NCBI RefSeq assembly: GCF_003018255.1
Contig: NZ_CP027440.1
Strand: one strand, 5' to 3'
DNA from: Escherichia coli
GTDB lineage: Bacteria > Pseudomonadota > Gammaproteobacteria > Enterobacterales > Enterobacteriaceae
Length of the DNA stretch: 64,000 nt
The position numbers and the translations under genes are program-made. The notes beneath the pieces were generated by a model. The model made no database searches. It had not been told where the DNA came from and was given only the letters and a program-made list of their open reading frames with translations. Shown piece after piece: positions 10,246 to 18,804 of the stretch; the first letter of the stretch is position 1; each line of letters starts with the position of its first letter.

Positions 10246-11034
10246 TCAGGATACTTCTTGCTCGGCAACCACCAGTTCAACATTCTCTTCACTTAACAAC
10301 TGGCAGAAAGAATTGGGAGGCGGGGCATCAGTAAAAAAAGCCCTGACATTCCGTGCATTGCCAATTGAAACGGCAGCAGACGCGGTAAACTTCGTATGAT
10401 CGGCCACTAACAATGTATTCCGCGCATGTTTAATCATCGTTCTCGCGACTAACGCTTCATTGACATCAAATTCCAGTAGGGTGCCGTCATGTTCAATGGC
10501 ACCTATACTGGTGATTAAATAATCTGCGCGGAAGCCTTCAATAAAATCCACGGCTCCTGGGCCGATAATCCCACCGTTATGAGCGCGTAAAGTGCCTCCC
10601 GGCACCATCACTTCAATATCCTGATTCTTATAAAGAATCTGTGCCACACGCAGGCTATTAGTGATAATGCGTAAATCACGCCGGTTGAGTAATGCCCTGG
10701 CAACGGCTTCTACGGTTGTACCGATGGTGATAAAGACGGTACAGCGTTCGGGAAGGTAATCGGCGACTGCCTCAGCGATCGCCCGTTTCTCGGCGGTGAG
10801 CGAAAGTTCCCGTTGCTCAAAAGCGGTATTCATGACGCTGGAGACGCGCCCGGCCCCTCCATGATGACGGGTGATCAAGCCCTGCTCACTGAGTTTTCGG
10901 ATATCCCGGCGCACGGTTTGCGTTGAAACATCCAGCAGTTGTGCCAGTTCTTCAATATTCATATAACCGCGTTCTGCGATTAGATGAACGAGTTGGTCAT
11001 GGCGTGGATTACCTGTCACTTCGATGATACTCAT
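10246..11034 (-). CDS. DeoR-family transcriptional regulator (YihW/CsqR-like), 262 aa
   Basis: N-terminal HTH (IEELAQLLDVSTQTVRRDIRKL) and DeoR C-terminal sugar-phosphate-binding domain; ATG read at 11032-11034 with upstream RBS. Confidence 0.8.
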   Translation of the reverse strand: MSIIEVTGNPRHDQLVHLIAERGYMNIEELAQLLDVSTQTVRRDIRKLSEQGLITRHHGGAGRVSSVMNTAFEQRELSLTAEKRAIAEAVADYLPERCTVFITIGTTVEAVARALLNRRDLRIITNSLRVAQILYKNQDIEVMVPGGTLRAHNGGIIGPGAVDFIEGFRADYLITSIGAIEHDGTLLEFDVNEALVARTMIKHARNTLLVADHTKFTASAAVSIGNARNVRAFFTDAPPPNSFCQLLSEENVELVVAEQEVS

Positions 11035-11073
11035 GAATACTCCCTTGCCCCTCCTCGGTAGATGTTTACCATT

Positions 11074-11970
11074 TTACGCATAAAGTGACAAAAATGATTC
11101 GGTTTGCTCACGATTAGGAATGCCGGCCCGACCGCCAGGCTGGGTACATTTCATCGCGGCAACCGCACTGGCAAAACGAATAGCCTCTTTTGTTGGCATT
11201 TTTTCTGCCAACGCTACCGCGAGTGCGCCGTGAAAAACATCGCCTGCTCCAGTGGTATCAACCACATTGACAGAAAATGCCTCCTGTTGACACAAATGAC
11301 CATCTTCAATCCACAACGATCCTTCAGAACCCAGCGTAACATACACTTTACCTGCTGTTTGTGTCGTTGCCTGGAACAAACCTTCTTCAGGTGACTGCAG
11401 GCCAGTCATGCGTTTCAGCCCAGGTGTTGAGAACACGGCGTGATCGGCAAGCGCGACAAGTGGAGAAATATCCTGCGGTGTCATATCGGCGTCTAAAAGC
11501 GTTGTCACACCCGCAAGGCGCGCTAGCGAGAATGCTTTTTCAGTACCGCTATGCCAGCGAACATCGGCCAGAATCAGATCATAACGAGAGAAATCGATCG
11601 CTTCTAACCATTCGGCATCAGTACCGAGATCAGGACTTGGATAATTAACGATAATCCGTTCGCCATGCTGATCAACGAGGATCGCTGATTGCGACGAACG
11701 GGCGTTAGGATATCGGCGGCAAAATGCGGTATTGACGCCCCAACCCTCAAGTTCTGCAAGTAAGGTATTTCCACAACTGTCATCGCCGACGCGACCGATG
11801 AAATCAACCTCCACGCCAAGCTTTGCGATTGCAACAGCGGCTGTTGCTGCCGGGCCGCCACCAATCTCAAGATAATGATTTGCCTGATATTTCCCGCCGC
11901 CCTCCGGCAGAGTGGGCAAAGAATAAATCCTGTCCTGAACTGTGATACCCACGCATGCAATTCTGGTCAT
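11074..11970 (-). CDS. PfkB-family sugar kinase (YihV / 6-deoxy-6-sulfofructose kinase-like), about 298 aa
   Basis: ORF 11074..12021; start placed at internal ATG ([13 protein letters not shown]...); PfkB signature [18 protein letters not shown]. Confidence 0.8.
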
Positions 11971-12142
11971 ATTTGTCTTGTCCTGTTTAATTTTGTCGTC
12001 TTTGGTCAATTTAAATGACACAAATGATCAAATTAGTGATGCGTGTCGTGTTTTTGAACATAAATTACAAATATGCTCAAAAACAGACGAAAACGAATTT
12101 TCAATTGTCATTATTTTGTCAATGTCAGACAGGAGAGTATTC
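11971..12142. promoter_or_regulatory. Divergent intergenic control region between the kinase/regulator and reductase/aldolase operons, with TTGTCA direct repeats
   Basis: AT-rich 172-bp region; TTGTCA read at 12105-12110 and 12116-12121 (11-bp spacing), tgtcag at 12123-12128; RBS aggagag at 12131-12137. Confidence 0.4.
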
Positions 12143-13021
12143 ATGGCAACCATTGCATTTCTCGGGCTGGGGCAGATGGGTAGCCCAATGGCTAACAATC
12201 TATTGCAAAAAGGGCATTCATTGCAGGTATTTGATGTCAATGCACAGGCCGTCGATGTGCTAGTTACGCAGGGGGCCACTGCGGCACAAACCCCAGCGGA
12301 AGCAGCAGCAGGCGCTGAATTTATCATCACTATGCTTCCCAATGGTGACATTGTTCGACAGGTTCTGTTGGGGGAAAAAGGCGTCTGTGAGGCTGTTTCA
12401 TCTGACGCGTTATTGATTGATATGTCGACTATTCATCCCTTACAGACCGATGCATTAATACGGGAGTTACAAGAAAAAGGCATCAGTATGATGGACGCTC
12501 CCGTGGGCAGAACGTCCGTGAATGCGATTGATGGCACATTGCTGATTTTAGCGGGTGGCACTGATGAGCAGATTGCACGTGCACGCCCGATTCTCATGTG
12601 CATGGGTAATGAACTGGTCGAGGCTGGCGGCCCAGGAATGGGGATCCGCGTGAAGCTAATTAACAACTATATGAGCATTGCGCTTAATGCGCTGTCCTCC
12701 GAGGCCGCTGTGTTATGTGAGTCACTGGGATTAAATCTTGATGTCGCAATTAAGGTGATGAGTGGTACGGCAGCAGGGAAAGGACATTTTACGACCACCT
12801 GGCCTGGCAAAGTGCTGAAAGGCGATCTTTCACCCGCCTTCATGGTGGATCTGGCGTTGAAAGATCTGCGTATTGCAGTTGACGTCGCTCGGGAGACGGG
12901 GGCACCGCTCAATATGGGGATTGCAGCAGAAAGTTATTACGCCGCAGCAAGTCAAGACGGCAAAGGGCGGCAGGATTGGAGTGCCCTGCTAAATCAGGTT
13001 CGCCAGCAGGCTGGTCTTTAA
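12143..13021 (+). CDS. NAD(P)-dependent HIBADH-family reductase (YihU / 3-sulfolactaldehyde reductase-like), about 292 aa
   Basis: ORF 11942..13021; start placed at ATG 12143 ([20 protein letters not shown], Rossmann GxGxxG). Confidence 0.8.
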
Positions 13022-13045
13022 TTTTATCTATTAACAGGAGTTTCT

Positions 13046-13933
13046 ATGTCATCCCACTTCACCCCATTTACGCTGAAAGATATCTCCCGCCCAGGTGGTG
13101 GATTCGCCATGTTAGCTGTCGATCAGCGTGAGGCCATGCGCCTGATGTTTGCGGCAGCAGGGCAGCCAAAACCCATCGCCGACAGTGTACTCACCGATTT
13201 TAAAGTTGCCGCGACCCGAATCCTTTCTCCTTATGCTTCTGCCGTTCTGGCGGATAAACAATTTTGTCTTGAACAAATAGTCGAGCAGGGCGCTGTGGCT
13301 AATTCTTGCGGCCTGATTGTCGCTGCCGATCTTTTTATCCCAGGTAATGGCATCCCGGTTGATAGCGTTGAAATAGATATGTCCGTCGACCCGCATAAAG
13401 CCCGTGAAATGGGGGCTAAGGCAATGAAATTACTTGTACTCTGGCGTGAAGATGAACCCGCAGAGGAACGTCTGGCAATGGTTGATAAATTTGTTCGTCG
13501 CTGCCGTAGTGCCGGGCTGGTTAGCATTATTGAACCTGTGGTGCGTCCACCTCGTCGCGGTTGGGACTTTGATCGTGAAAGCGCCATTGTTGCCGCCGCC
13601 GCAGAGCTTGGTGGAACAGAGGCTGATCTTTACAAAGCCGAGATGCCATTAGGGGGCAAAGGCGATGAAAAAACCTTACTTGCCGCCTGTCAGCAACTTA
13701 ACGATCAGATGAAGATGCCGTGGGTAATTCTTTCTTCTGGCGTTGATGCCGATATTTTTGGCCGTGCAGTAAGTATTGCCATGAAAGGTGGTGCGTCGGG
13801 CTTCCTGGCTGGACGAGCGGTATGGGCGTCGGTTGTTGGTGCACAAGATCCACAAACCATGCTGCGCGATGTCTCCGTTCCACGCTTGCAACGGCTGGCT
13901 GAAATTGTCGATGAAGGTATCGCGCAACGCTAA
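13046..13933 (+). CDS. Class I aldolase of the LacD/DeoC family (YihT / sulfofructose-phosphate aldolase-like), 295 aa
   Basis: ORF-track peptide [29 protein letters not shown]...; family assignment from recollection. Confidence 0.7.
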
Positions 13934-13965
13934 TCCCCTATGGATATCGATTCTGGAGAATAACA

Positions 13966-14976
13966 ATGGATAAAATTACCCAGGTTTTATTTTCAGATAT
14001 TGGGAAAGTCACCACTCAATATGTTGAAGTACCACACCAGCAACTTAAACCGCACGAAGTACGGATTGCGCCCGTGTTCTACGGGATATGCGGTTCGGAT
14101 CTGCATGTTCTGAAAGGCGGTCATCCGTTTGCCAAGCCGCCTGTCGTCCCCGGTCATGAAATTGCAGCGCGCGTTACGGAAGTGGGCAGCGACGTTAAAA
14201 ATGTACAGCCGGGCGATCATGTTGTGGTCGATCCCATCATGGCTTGCATGGAATGCCGAGCCTGCAAAGCAGGACGTTTTAATCTTTGTGAACCACCGCA
14301 GGTTGCTGGTTTTCGCGCACCGGGCTTTGCTCGCTCACAACACATTGTTCCTGCGCGTAATTGCCATGTCGCACCAGCCTCTTTACCGCTAAAAGTGTTG
14401 GCCTTTGCCGAACCGGCGGCTTGTGCTCGTCACTGCGTTAACCGAATGCCGAAAGCTTCTCTGGAAAGCGTACTGGTGATTGGTGCCGGAACGATAGGCT
14501 TATCCATCGTGCAGGCACTGCGCATTATGGGGGCAGGTAAGATTACCGTGATTGAACCTGACGCTGCCAAACGCGCGCTGGCGTTAAAGCTGGGCGCAGC
14601 AGAAGTTTGGGCACCAGGTGAGCTGGCCGCAGATGTGAGATTTACGGGGGCGATTGATGTCGTTGCAGCGCAGGCCACGCTTAACGATGCATGTACCCGT
14701 GTATATGCCGGAGGCACCGTCGTGTGCATGGGCGTACCAAGTGGGCCGCGTGAAATACCATTACCGATGATGCAACGTTTCGAGCGTGACTTGCTCAACT
14801 CTGGCATGTACATCCCTGAAGATTTCGATGCTGTTATCGAATGGCTGGCGGATGGGCGGTTTGATACCAGTGAACTGGTTACCGATTTATTTGCCATTGA
14901 GGATGCAGCGGCGGCATTCGAACGCGCGCAGCAAAATGACTCCATAAAGGTCATGCTGCAATTTGCGCCGGAATGA
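13966..14976 (+). CDS. Zn-dependent medium-chain alcohol/polyol dehydrogenase (sorbitol/galactitol-1-phosphate dehydrogenase-like), 336 aa
   Basis: Catalytic-zinc motif CGSDLH...GHE, structural-zinc cysteines CMECRACKAGRFNLC, NAD-binding VIGAGTIGL. Confidence 0.8.
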   Translation: MDKITQVLFSDIGKVTTQYVEVPHQQLKPHEVRIAPVFYGICGSDLHVLKGGHPFAKPPVVPGHEIAARVTEVGSDVKNVQPGDHVVVDPIMACMECRACKAGRFNLCEPPQVAGFRAPGFARSQHIVPARNCHVAPASLPLKVLAFAEPAACARHCVNRMPKASLESVLVIGAGTIGLSIVQALRIMGAGKITVIEPDAAKRALALKLGAAEVWAPGELAADVRFTGAIDVVAAQATLNDACTRVYAGGTVVCMGVPSGPREIPLPMMQRFERDLLNSGMYIPEDFDAVIEWLADGRFDTSELVTDLFAIEDAAAAFERAQQNDSIKVMLQFAPE

Positions 14977-15045
14977 TTTTCTAAATCTCTGTCTGGCGCT
15001 GCGTCACGTCAGCGCCACCCTACAACAATTAAAAAGGACACTGCG

Positions 15046-16479
15046 ATGAGTCAAATCACCAGTCCTGCAACTTATTCAATTAGTCGGCCACAGGACGTAA
15101 TTGATATTGTTAATAAGAACTCTGCAATCAACACCAGTATCGGCGTTATTTTTATTGCTTTGGGCGGCATATTGATTGATGCCTACCAGGTGGCGATGGT
15201 GGGGTTTGGTAATAAATACATTGCCGCTCAATTCGGCATTTCTCCGGGTCTTGCTGCGACCGTCAATGCGTCAGTATTAATCGCCGCGTTAATTGGCGGT
15301 TTATTAGCGAACCGAGTAATAAACCGCTTTGGGCAAAAGCGGGCATTTATTATTGGCATGGGGCTGTGCACCATCGGTGCTGCAGCGGTAGCTATTGCTC
15401 CCAGTATCTGGTGGGTGCTGGTGTGCCGCGTCATCATGGGCTTTGGTTTAGGCATCGACTTCCCTTTGGCAACTAATGCCGTGGCAGAGCTTCGTGGTTC
15501 AACGTCGAAGAAAACCGGAACGTCGGTCAACCTCTGGCAAATGGCCTGGTATGTTTCGACAACCGTTGTTTATTTGGTGCTTTTGCCGCTGCTTCTGTCG
15601 GGTATCGCTGAAGAACAATTGTGGCGTTACGGAATATTCATCGGAGCTATTTTTGCAGTCATCTTCATGATTTTGCGTTACTTCTTTATTGGTGAATCCG
15701 CAATGTGGGCCGCACGCGTTGGGCGTTACCAGGAAGCGTGCGACATTCTGGGAAAACGTTATGGTGTTCAGGCTCGCGTTGCGGCATCGGGTACAACAGA
15801 AGCGAAATTCTCGGAAAAAGCAGAGAATAAATACAGTGGTGGATATGGCATCTTATTTAATGATCGTTACCGCAAACGCACCATTCTTGGCTGTGTCGTG
15901 GCAACCATGCAGGCGTGGCAATATAACGCCGTAGGTGTTTATCTTCCTCTTACGTTGGCGGGAATAATAAGTGGCGGGCTTACTGGCGCGTTGACCGGTT
16001 CTGCCGTCGTGAATGCCCTTTGTGGGGTGACAGGTGGGATGATCGGCTCGTTTATTCTCCAACGACTGGGTACTCGCCGACAGTCGATGTATGGATTTGC
16101 TGTTGTGACCTTAGCATTGCTGTCGTTAGGCGCACTGGCAACGACTAATCCTTGGCTGTCTTTAGGGTTATTGGGATCAATTATTTTCTTCCATTCAGCG
16201 GGTCCTGGTGGGCTGGGCATGACCATTGCCACACTCTCTTATCCTCCCGCTATTCGCCCTACTGGGGTCGGATTTGCCCGCGCTATTATGCGCACAGGGG
16301 CAATTGCAGGACTCATTTTCTGGCCGATGCTGTGGGGTGCGTTGAAAACTGAAGCGTTTTACTGGTTGGCAATCGTGCCATTCCTGGGATTCCTAACCTG
16401 TGTATTGATTAATTGGGAACCACTGGGTGCAAATGTTGATGCTGAGGACGCAGAGGTTCTGGCTGAATTGAAGAAATAA
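15046..16479 (+). CDS. MFS transporter, 477 aa
   Basis: Multiple hydrophobic segments; MFS motif A (GGLLANRVINRFGQKRAF). Confidence 0.8.
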   Translation: MSQITSPATYSISRPQDVIDIVNKNSAINTSIGVIFIALGGILIDAYQVAMVGFGNKYIAAQFGISPGLAATVNASVLIAALIGGLLANRVINRFGQKRAFIIGMGLCTIGAAAVAIAPSIWWVLVCRVIMGFGLGIDFPLATNAVAELRGSTSKKTGTSVNLWQMAWYVSTTVVYLVLLPLLLSGIAEEQLWRYGIFIGAIFAVIFMILRYFFIGESAMWAARVGRYQEACDILGKRYGVQARVAASGTTEAKFSEKAENKYSGGYGILFNDRYRKRTILGCVVATMQAWQYNAVGVYLPLTLAGIISGGLTGALTGSAVVNALCGVTGGMIGSFILQRLGTRRQSMYGFAVVTLALLSLGALATTNPWLSLGLLGSIIFFHSAGPGGLGMTIATLSYPPAIRPTGVGFARAIMRTGAIAGLIFWPMLWGALKTEAFYWLAIVPFLGFLTCVLINWEPLGANVDAEDAEVLAELKK

Positions 16480-16577
16480 TTTAATGCGCATCGGCTTAAG
16501 CCGATGCGCATTAATTCAAACTGCCCACGTTTAGTGGTTCGTATCCCAGATTTCTCGCCTACCAGGAGAGGAAAATT

Positions 16578-17927
16578 ATGTCTGAAAAGTTACCCGCACC
16601 GCGTGAAGGGCTTTCCGGTAAAGCCATGAGACGTGTCGTTATGGGCAGTTTCGCAGGCGCGTTAATGGAATGGTATGACTTCTTTATTTTTGGCACGGCA
16701 GCAGGACTGGTATTTGCACCGCTGTTTTATCCAGACAGCGATCCTTTTATAGGTCTTATAGCTTCCTTTGCGACCTTTGGTGTCGGTTTTCTGACTCGTC
16801 CTTTAGGGGGCATCGTCTTTGGTCATTTTGGCGATAAAATCGGGCGAAAAATAACACTTATCTGGACGCTGGCTATTGTCGGTTGCTCCACATTTTTGAT
16901 TGGTTTTATTCCGACGTATCAGGAAATTGGCATTTGGGCACCGCTTGTATTAATGGTGCTGCGTTTGATTCAGGGCTTTGGTCTTGGTGGCGAGTACGGT
17001 GGAGCGGCATTGATGACCATAGAATCAGCGCCCGAATCCCGACGCGGATTTTTAGGTTCACTCCCGCAAACGGCTGCGTCTGTGGGTATTATGCTGGCAA
17101 CCGGTATTTTTGCTCTCTGTAACCATTTTCTTACTTCGGAGCAGTTTCTCTCCTGGGGATGGCGCATTCCGTTTTGGCTTTCTGCGGTGATGTTGATCGT
17201 TGGGCTGTTTATCCGCCTACATACCGAAGAAACGCTGGATTTTCAAAAGCAAAAAACGACGAATAATAAAGAAAAGTCCGTTCCTCCGTTGATTGAATTA
17301 TTCAAAAAACATCCACGAAATATTTTATTGGCACTGGGTGCGAGGCTGGCGGAAAGTGTCTCCTCTAATATTATTAATGCCTTTGGTATTGTCTATATTT
17401 CCAGCCAATTAGCATTGTCGCGAGATATTCCCCTGACGGGTATGTTGATTGCCTCGGCGATCGGTATTTTCAGTTGTCCATTGGTTGGATGGTTATCAGA
17501 TCGTATAGGTCAAAAAAGTCTGTATTTGTCGGGAGCAGGATTTTGTGTCCTGTTCGCGTTTCCTTTCTTCTTATTATTGGATAGCAAAAGTACGCTCATC
17601 ATCTGGTGCAGTATGATCCTCGGCTACAACTTAGGTCCGACGATGATGTTTGCCGTGCAGCCAACACTTTTCACCCGCATGTTCGGTACCAAAGTACGAT
17701 ATACCGGCCTTTCTTTTGCTTATCAATTTTCCGCGATTCTTGGCGGACTAAGCCCCCTTATCGCCTCAAGTTTGCTGGCGCTAGGGGGAGGAAAACCGTG
17801 GTATGTCGCTCTGTTTTTATTTGCTGTCTCAGTTCTTTCCTTTGTTTGCGTCTGGCTGATTGAGCCGACCGATGAACAAGAAACCGCTTCTTACCGCTAC
17901 ATCAGGGAACAATCTCATGAAAACTGA
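16578..17927 (+). CDS. MFS transporter of the metabolite:H+ symporter type (ProP/KgtP/ShiA-like), 449 aa
   Basis: Characteristic N-terminus EWYDFFIFG and GHFGDKIGRK loop motif. Confidence 0.75.
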   Translation: MSEKLPAPREGLSGKAMRRVVMGSFAGALMEWYDFFIFGTAAGLVFAPLFYPDSDPFIGLIASFATFGVGFLTRPLGGIVFGHFGDKIGRKITLIWTLAIVGCSTFLIGFIPTYQEIGIWAPLVLMVLRLIQGFGLGGEYGGAALMTIESAPESRRGFLGSLPQTAASVGIMLATGIFALCNHFLTSEQFLSWGWRIPFWLSAVMLIVGLFIRLHTEETLDFQKQKTTNNKEKSVPPLIELFKKHPRNILLALGARLAESVSSNIINAFGIVYISSQLALSRDIPLTGMLIASAIGIFSCPLVGWLSDRIGQKSLYLSGAGFCVLFAFPFFLLLDSKSTLIIWCSMILGYNLGPTMMFAVQPTLFTRMFGTKVRYTGLSFAYQFSAILGGLSPLIASSLLALGGGKPWYVALFLFAVSVLSFVCVWLIEPTDEQETASYRYIREQSHEN

Positions 17928-18804
17928 ACGAAAAAACGAGCATTACCTGGCGCTACAACAGGCGTTTGACGCGCCATGGCCTGGGCCTGTAGGAGAGTTA
18001 GTGATGCTGGAAAAAGGCAATATTCACCTGCAGATTTATCCGCATGATGGTGCCAGGATAACCTCGTTAAAGGCATTTGGTTCTGAAGTATTACGCCAAT
18101 GGCAGCCGCAGCGCAGAGCTTTTCAGTATGGCTGTTTCCCAATGGTGCCGTGGGCAGGGCGACTGGGGAATGCGACGCTGAATGCTGGTGGGCAATGTTA
18201 TTCTTTACCCGCCAATAAACCACCACATGCGTTGCATGGTATGGCTTGTTACTCAACGTGGGAAATCATCGACAAAACAGCAGATTCCCTGACTTTACGT
18301 ATGCCCCTGGCTTCACCGTGGCCCTGGCAAGGGGAAGTGATTCAGACTTTTTTGCTGGAGAACGATGCGCTGGTTTTGCAACTGGAAGTCCATTCATATG
18401 CCGATACATTCCCGGCCTCCGCAGGCTGGCATCCGTGGTTTGCGAAAAAGCTGACTCCGCAAAATACAGAATCGTTGCAGGTGCTTTTTGATGCGGACTG
18501 GCAAGAAGAAGCGGGTAGTGATGAACTGCCAACTGGAAATCGTATCTCTCCTCAAGTCGGTCCCTGGGATGACTGTTTTGGTTTTTATGACGGGGTGAAG
18601 GTTAAGTTACTGTGGCCTGGTAAACTCGCGATGACCATGACCTCTTCTGCAAACAGTCTGGTGGTATTTGATAAACAGCCCGATGCCACCTGTATTAACC
18701 CGCTGACTCAGGCACCTAACGCAATAAATCTAACGCCGGAATTTGTGACACCAGATAAGCCGCTGGTCATCGAAACTCGTTGGCAATTTACACCTGAATC
18801 TTAA
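17872..18804 (+). CDS. Aldose 1-epimerase (mutarotase)-like protein (YihR-like), about 310 aa; alternative ATG at 17917
   Basis: ORF 17860..18804 begins at a TTG; ATG codons at 17872 and 17917; start overlaps the end of the upstream transporter gene. Confidence 0.65.
   Translation: MNKKPLLTATSGNNLMKTERKNEHYLALQQAFDAPWPGPVGELVMLEKGNIHLQIYPHDGARITSLKAFGSEVLRQWQPQRRAFQYGCFPMVPWAGRLGNATLNAGGQCYSLPANKPPHALHGMACYSTWEIIDKTADSLTLRMPLASPWPWQGEVIQTFLLENDALVLQLEVHSYADTFPASAGWHPWFAKKLTPQNTESLQVLFDADWQEEAGSDELPTGNRISPQVGPWDDCFGFYDGVKVKLLWPGKLAMTMTSSANSLVVFDKQPDATCINPLTQAPNAINLTPEFVTPDKPLVIETRWQFTPES

Follow-up and report, generated by a model that had tools for sequence, protein, structure and literature searches.

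The divergent yihU/yihV control region of the short yih cassette of Escherichia coli: candidate YihW operators, and TTGTCA repeats that are probably not the main operator

The closest described system to the one analysed here is the CsqR operator region in the yihU/yihV spacer of Escherichia coli K-12 (Shimada 2019; Kaznadzey 2018, 2025; Gao 2021), of which our region is the allelic counterpart. According to the literature, CsqR forms large cooperative, aggregate-forming complexes on the K-12 spacer. ChIP-exo of this regulator (YihW) in K-12 gave one strong site, at 4071641-4071681 with S/N 168 (Gao et al. 2021, supplementary file 5). CRP binds the K-12 yihU/V spacer, and position 4071737 (U00096.2) lies within the promoter cluster of the major yihV start at -25/-27 (Kaznadzey 2018, PMC5816610). 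A 'short' yih cassette, reversed in orientation, has been described at the chromosomal position of the K-12 cassette; Nissle 1917 and many pathogenic strains carry it, and its yihU/V spacer was amplified with degenerate primers for EMSA (Kaznadzey et al. 2025, PMC12608037). In those experiments both YihW of Nissle 1917 and CsqR of K-12 bound the short-cassette fragment, and each of the two proteins bound the K-12 and the short-type spacers alike (PMC12608037). Binding to the short cassette was weaker at 37 C and the release induced by sulfoquinovose was weaker, sulfoquinovose does not induce the short cassette, and the yihW promoter region is a weaker target of YihW (PMC12608037).

Our literature search found no site-level mapping for the short cassette. 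Given the EMSA results and the reported CsqR complexes, the role of the region as a whole as operator of the adjacent DeoR regulator is in print; both the control region and the binding of YihW to it are already known. The only DNase I footprint of CsqR is said to be that of Shimada in 2019. A more distant point of reference is GlpR of the glp regulon, a cooperative oligomeric DeoR-type repressor with adjacent operators that overlap the promoter and extend into the leader. Each of its operators is a 20-bp palindrome built on the half-site WATGTTCGWT. The GlpR model NF008154 is the closest named family model of the regulator studied here, at 256 bits, below its cut-off of 331 bits.

The DNA that we analysed, here called the window, is a stretch of 64,000 nucleotides (contig NZ_CP027440.1). 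It belongs to an E. coli chromosome that bears the 'short' yih cassette of the Nissle-1917 type. A 3.8-kb query around the spacer is 100% identical to complete E. coli genomes, and annotation together with family scans gives the order typA-yihL-yihM-yihN, regulator and kinase (minus strand), yihU operon (plus strand), then yihX; at the same chromosomal site K-12 has ompL-yihOPQRSTU and yihVW. As in the K-12 CsqR region, an orthologous kinase-regulator pair diverges from a reductase-aldolase pair. The genes of the cassette and the spacer between them are as follows.

10246-11034, minus strand: yihW-like regulator of the DeoR/GlpR family, 262 aa, 72% identical to K-12 CsqR
11074-11970, minus strand: yihV-like sugar kinase of the PfkB family, with the sulfonate triad K27/N109/R138 conserved (residues: PMC8006165)
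11971-12142, no strand assigned: divergent control region, 172 bp, wholly within the published YihW EMSA fragment (window equivalent 11941-12205)
12143-13021, plus strand: yihU-like sulfolactaldehyde reductase, head of the rightward operon (annotation, family scan and homology)
13046-13933, rightward operon: aldolase (yihT-like)
13966-14976, rightward operon: Zn-dependent alcohol dehydrogenase (Zn-ADH)
15046-16479, rightward operon: MFS transporter 1
16578-17927, rightward operon: MFS transporter 2
17917-18804, rightward operon: aldose epimerase

The four proteins common to the short and K-12 alleles are 67-73% identical. In the predicted HTH segment of YihW (about residues 24-60), 35 of 37 residues are the same in the window protein and K-12 CsqR, and the two YihW proteins are therefore expected to share their DNA specificity. 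In the window, the primers that Kaznadzey et al. 2025 used for EMSA fall at 11941-11960 and 12185-12205; from these matches, the gene order and the 72% YihW identity, the window spacer would be that of Nissle 1917. Of 5426 complete E. coli genomes, 1326 (about one quarter) carry the short-type spacer allele, and two of the 1326 copies are in records labelled as plasmids. A 359-aa GTG-initiated open reading frame across the whole spacer (11942-13021) was rejected, as homology and annotation put the yihU start at the ATG at 12143.

A first-pass annotation of this DNA had described the spacer as a divergent control region with helically phased TTGTCA direct repeats, and had proposed these as a candidate operator array for the adjacent DeoR regulator. 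The spacer limits that it gave are correct (kinase start at 11970 on the minus strand, reductase ATG at 12143), and so are its positions for the two TTGTCA copies and TGTCAG. The repeats, with the yihU Shine-Dalgarno sequence and a further copy at the yihW promoter, are:

11973-11997, plus strand: three TTGTC copies (11973, 11978, 11993) in the yihV leader; the copy at 11978 overlaps the yihV Shine-Dalgarno sequence on the opposite strand
12105-12110, plus strand: TTGTCA copy 1 (TGACAA on the minus strand), at about +23 in the putative yihU leader
12116-12121, plus strand: TTGTCA copy 2, 11 bp start to start from copy 1 (10 bp in about 10% of E. coli alleles)
12123-12128, plus strand: TGTCAG, a third, partial copy, unconserved (35% column identity)
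12131-12135, plus strand: Shine-Dalgarno sequence AGGAG of yihU, invariant among the aligned short-type orthologues
11086-11091, minus strand: TTGTCA(C) directly upstream of the TAAAAT -10 of the yihW promoter, within the 3' end of yihV

An extra TGTC copy lies in the spacer at 12044. The TTGTCA(C) at the yihW promoter is found in both cassette types, its conservation there being confounded by coding constraints.

Over the whole 64-kb window TTGTCA is not enriched, with 37 copies observed and 37.3 expected. On the plus strand of the spacer, TTGTC occurs five times compared to 0.73 expected (P = 0.0002) and TGTC seven times compared to 1.68 (P = 0.0002), and the TGTC excess in the spacer is real. 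A TTGTCA pair at 10-11 bp in the spacer has P = 0.003 for that specific hexamer, but 16% of dinucleotide shuffles contain some exact hexamer twice at a distance of 10 or 11 bp (P = 0.16), and the pair alone is therefore weak evidence. Base autocorrelation of single spacers was uninformative, showing no periodicity above a z of about 3.

The phasing claimed for the repeats holds in the window, where the period is 11 bp, but not throughout the species: 130 of the 1326 genomes with the short-type spacer carry a one-T deletion between the two TTGTCA copies (window 12111-12115) that shortens the spacing from 11 to 10 bp. This 10-bp allele also has C12102A, and it includes the type strain ATCC 11775 (loci L082 and L083 in our set). 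Both hexamers are invariant in six aligned E. coli alleles, which differ elsewhere in the spacer.

The location of the K-12 ChIP-exo site relative to these repeats depends on the coordinate system of the published table, which we judged from its glpA and ssuE entries to be NC_000913.2. The offset to version 3 at the ChIP-exo site we take to be +1977. This value is consistent with the placement of 4071737 by Kaznadzey 2018. With the offset applied, the site corresponds to CGATAAATTACAAATACGATCAAAAACAGACAAGCAAAGCA (positions 13619-13659 of the K-12 locus, L002), from -87 to -47 as counted from the yihU ATG. The -10 hexamer TACGAT and the start mapped at -62/-63 fall inside this interval, which excludes a pair of TGACA motifs at -37 and -27 in the yihU leader, ending 10 bp before that pair. 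In the window the equivalent interval is about 12058-12095, and the TTGTCA pair lies outside it.

Promoter positions in the window were carried over from K-12 by spacer alignment; a scan of 11900-12200 for consensus sigma-70 promoters and terminators found no strong or canonical promoter and no terminator. The candidate operators and promoter elements are listed here.

12009-12014, minus strand: predicted yihV -10, TTAAAT, by homology to the K-12 yihV TSS at -25/-27; putative TSS about 12002-12004
12012-12032, plus strand: O_L, TAAATGACACAAATGATCAAA, putative second copy of the main operator element, overlying the predicted yihV core promoter and 90% conserved among short-type orthologues
12035-12050, no strand assigned: weak CRP-like site AGTGA-N6-TCGTG, 6/10, centre about 12042.5, roughly 40 bp from both putative TSSs; its position is likewise putative
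12049-12085, no strand assigned: inverted repeat TGTTTTTGAACATA / TATGCTCAAAAACA around O_C, with 14-nt arms that are 93% complementary (13/14) and a 9-nt spacer
12061-12081, plus strand: O_C, TAAATTACAAATATGCTCAAA, putative main operator core, orthologous to the K-12 CsqR ChIP-exo site and nearly invariant in 74 loci
12072-12077, plus strand: predicted yihU -10, TATGCT, by homology to the K-12 TSS at -62/-63 (PMC5816610); putative TSS 12082-12083

The K-12-type equivalent of the CRP-like site, AAAAGTGACGGCTGTCAATTTT, matches at 7/10. The inverted repeat encloses AATTACAAA; its outer T5 and A5 tracts are kept in orthologues, and the three adjoining bases vary.

A weight matrix built from the O_C orthologues and run over the short-type spacer gives O_L a score of 17.0, compared to a null 99th percentile of 10.0, and O_L matches O_C at 16 of 20 positions (P about 0.01). 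Neither the TTGTCA pair nor the K-12 TGACA pair is significant with this matrix, and all window scores outside O_L are below -1.8, so that one common motif for O_C and the pairs could not be established. We infer that O_L and O_C are the main anchoring sites of YihW. Among the minor YihW ChIP-exo peaks in K-12, one is found just before the glpA start codon (L087), on AAACGAAC / AAAAACGAAC, a sequence that resembles a GlpR operator, and another is upstream of ssuE (L088), a gene for sulfonate utilisation. No motif shared with O_C or TGACA was established for the sequences under these two peaks; cross-recognition of GlpR sites by YihW is possible.

To place these elements in a comparative frame, we scanned genomes with the two YihW proteins and obtained 79 loci, which were typed by gene content. 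Short-type cassettes (ADH-MFS-MFS) occur in Escherichia, Citrobacter, Phytobacter, Erwinia typographi, Trabulsiella and an Enterobacter sp.; Budvicia and Leminorella have more distant ADH-type clusters, and the rest of the loci are K-12-type. We aligned 74 distinct kinase-reductase spacers, taken from the scan loci, K-12 and the window. Across these 74 the block TAAATTACAAATAyGATCAAA hardly varies, and the window and K-12 have in common the central block ATAAATTACAAATAyGMTCAAAAACAGAC. The window differs from K-12 in that the short type has a clear O_L, the K-12 copy being more degenerate.

Among the short-type orthologues the blocks 12011-12040 and 12057-12094 are about 90% conserved. The repeats give lower values: 76% for the first TTGTCA (with TTGT alone invariant and CA variable), 81% for the second, 35% for TGTCAG and 69% for the left flank. 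Scored as a pair, the TTGTCA repeats match at 10/10 in the short-type cassettes of Escherichia and 9/10 in those of Citrobacter, and are at background (7/10 or less) in those of Phytobacter, the Enterobacter sp., Erwinia and Trabulsiella. The comparison with orthologues that the first-pass annotation had suggested as a check therefore comes out divided, with the motif kept in two genera and not in the other four.

Two rearranged loci were encountered in the scan. L078 (Citrobacter sp. NCU1) has two YihW paralogues and the ADH-MFS-MFS-epimerase block in another arrangement, and it retains O_L-like and O_C-like blocks upstream of yihU. In L007 (Enterobacteriaceae MAG UBA5654), a short-type yihW/yihU is joined to a K-12-type yihOPQ.

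The recurrent element of these spacers is TGACA. In 38 thinned spacers GTCA/TGAC was counted 185 times compared to 66 expected (z = 17.6), GACA/TGTC was also among the top 4-mers, and the top 5-mer other than Shine-Dalgarno sequences was TGACA/TGTCA, with 102 copies compared to 29 expected (z = 15); these z-scores are inflated by the common ancestry of the spacers, yet several copies per spacer lie at non-homologous positions. On average there are about 2.7 copies of TGACA/TGTCA per spacer compared to 0.8 expected, usually with an A-rich 5' flank. The arrangement TGACA-N5-TGACA in the yihU leader is perfect in 39 of 65 K-12-type loci and matches at 9/10 in 13 more, compared to 0.03% in shuffled sequences. 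The K-12-type leader pair keeps a constant distance of 46 bp to the O_C anchor; its flanks, its inner spacer and its distance to the ATG vary. The fetched loci, 1.13 Mb in all, hold 42 exact copies of TGACA-N5-TGACA, and 40 of these are at this spot in the yihU leader. In K-12 itself the pair is at L002:13595-13609 (-37 to -23 from the yihU ATG), and the strict 10-bp phase is seen in many Enterobacterales genera. The available literature yielded no description of this leader pair, which, judging from its conservation, appears to be a well-supported element of CsqR control.

The TTGTCA pair of the window is the reverse complement, TGACAAAATAATGACA (N6), of the K-12-type TGACA pair and occupies an equivalent place, its two copies being 41 and 52 bp from the TTACA of O_C compared to 43 and 53 bp in the K-12 type. 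An ungapped information profile anchored on O_C shows the leader pair blurred by small indels. The two allelic forms thus differ in orientation and period: the K-12-type pair is in the yihU sense with a 10-bp period, unlike the window pair, which is its reverse complement with 11 bp (10 in some alleles).

A reading along the lines of the first-pass annotation, in which the DeoR regulator acts principally through the phased TTGTCA direct repeats as its operator, gains from the fact that TGACA/TGTCA is the top recurrent 5-mer and that K-12-type cassettes keep a strictly phased pair in this place. Against it, the in-vivo ChIP-exo site of the orthologue is on the neighbouring block, both YihW proteins bind both spacers, which share O_C but neither the orientation nor the spacing of the pair, and the repeats are poorly conserved among short-type orthologues. 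We regard this reading as quite improbable. What stands of the proposal is that the region binds YihW, as the published EMSA shows; the repeats are probably not the main operator, given that the ChIP-exo site adjoins them and that the O_C matrix misses them.

Several other functions were considered for the same segment. The Pho box recognised by PhoB has the consensus CTGTCAT-AWAW-CTGTCAY with an 11-bp period. Like the Pho box, the window segment TTGTCAT-TATT-TTGTCAA consists of two TGTCA-containing 7-mers separated by an A/T 4-mer at an 11-bp period, and it matches 11 of the 14 core positions, which could tie the cassette to phosphate starvation. However, there is no -10 at the required distance (GAGAGT at best) and the transcription start would fall at or after the yihU ATG, so the position is wrong with respect to any -10. 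The 10-bp spacing of 130 of 1326 alleles conflicts with the 11-bp period, the K-12-type pairs have a strict 10-bp period on the opposite strand, the pair is unconserved in the other short-type genera, and there is no link to phosphate metabolism. A Pho box is accordingly very unlikely.

It is hardly more convincing to take the segment as a weak site for CRP or another factor (TGTnn-N6-nnnCA), or as a minus-strand -35 TTGACA at 12122-12117, and we attach only a very small probability to these options. The match to TGTGA-N6-TCACA is 7/10, the TGT...CA columns are kept among short-type orthologues (with 8/10 in Trabulsiella), and CRP binding to the K-12 yihU/V spacer has been reported (PMC5816610); but matches of 7/10 arise often in A/T-rich DNA, the window has C in place of the second G of the TGTGA half-site (position 7), and the two halves form a direct instead of an inverted repeat. 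The minus-strand -35 has no -10 partner.

Finally, the repeats lie between the putative TSS and the Shine-Dalgarno sequence and the K-12-type pair is always in the mRNA sense, as would be expected if they acted on the yihU transcript, either by structure formed within its leader or by recruiting an RNA-binding factor there. The folding of the leader is no better than that of shuffled sequences (z = -0.04), Rfam gives only a sub-threshold eukaryotic snoRNA model, and the K-12-type element is present in the window as its reverse complement, an argument for double-stranded DNA as the target if the two elements are equivalent. A role in RNA is extremely unlikely.

A more serious alternative is that the TTGTCA pair is a decaying, functionless relic of a flipped ancestral TGACA-N5-TGACA and that regulation proceeds wholly via O_L and O_C. 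The limits of the ChIP-exo site, the matrix result, which gives the pair no score, the flipped orientation, the spacing that is polymorphic within E. coli and the loss of the pair in four of six short-type genera are all arguments that the repeats are dispensable or decaying. The pair is, moreover, unremarkable when all hexamers are considered, and the short cassette is the one with weak YihW binding and no sulfoquinovose induction. The invariance of the hexamers in six E. coli alleles that differ elsewhere, the 9/10 match retained in Citrobacter, and the significant over-representation of TTGTC and TGTC in the spacer speak against a relic, and we consider this account possible but rather unlikely.

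On balance we favour, with moderate confidence, a reading in which the spacer works in both directions with YihW anchored at O_L and O_C, and in which the TTGTCA repeats are auxiliary low-affinity contacts, not the primary operator, that are evolutionarily labile in the short cassette. The spacer is a shared promoter and operator region for yihV-yihW leftward and for yihU-yihT-ADH-MFS-MFS-epimerase rightward, and the DeoR-type repressor YihW binds it cooperatively, as published EMSA on this fragment shows. Its anchors would be the two direct repeats of about 21 bp, O_L (12012-12032), covering the yihV core promoter with a start at about 12003, and O_C (12061-12081), covering the yihU -10 and a start at about 12083, a position that the K-12 orthologue occupies in vivo. 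Occupancy of both may block RNA polymerase at both promoters by promoter occlusion. The TTGTCA repeats at 12105, 12116 and partly 12123, at about +23 to +45 of the yihU leader, can be seen as reverse-complement copies of an A-tract-flanked TGACA, and could let a YihW oligomer spread from O_C into the leader, with steadier repression or a roadblock as the outcome. As auxiliary contacts of YihW the repeats are plausible. Such an arrangement would resemble the tandem operators of GlpR in having several adjacent operator units that overlap the promoter and reach the transcribed leader; unlike in GlpR, the sequence WATGTTCGWT is absent from the spacer, and the recurrent unit is an A-tract followed by TGACA.

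The functional differences between the cassettes also deserve comment: compared with K-12, the short cassette has a YihW whose binding is weaker at 37 C, and sulfoquinovose does not induce it. All the sulfonate-binding residues reported in PMC8006165 are kept in the window proteins, as read by eye from the protein alignments, namely the YihV triad listed above, YihT K193/S226/S227/R253 and YihU R123/N174/S178. What the literature describes as the 'truncated' short form (yihTUVW) is part of a unit W-V / U-T-Zn-ADH-MFS-MFS that at least six genera conserve, with the aldose epimerase added in E. coli (window 10246-18804 and loci L003-L006, L008-L010, L039, L058 and L065). Together these features suggest that the short cassette may encode an intact pathway for some sulfonated substrate, with a polyol-type dehydrogenase replacing the isomerase and glycosidase. 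Nothing relevant on a sulfonated polyol as substrate for the ADH-containing cassette emerged from a search of the literature.

These results lead us to speculate, tentatively and with considerable doubt, that the short cassette is not a truncated sulfoquinovose cassette but an intact, eight-gene sulfonate pathway found across genera, that its YihW answers to another inducer, and that the flipped and respaced TGACA leader pair reflects a rewired operator array. If this is true, operator rewiring would account for the weaker YihW binding and the lack of induction by sulfoquinovose.

The identification of O_L and O_C as the likely main operators, and of a TGACA leader pair that is present in the K-12 type and flipped in the short cassettes of E. 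coli, adds new detail to a known kind of control region. With the likely main operators located and the TTGTCA repeats secondary to them, there is a basis for the design of footprinting and reporter work, on a yih allele carried by about one quarter of complete E. coli genomes, including Nissle-type strains and many extraintestinal pathogenic ones.
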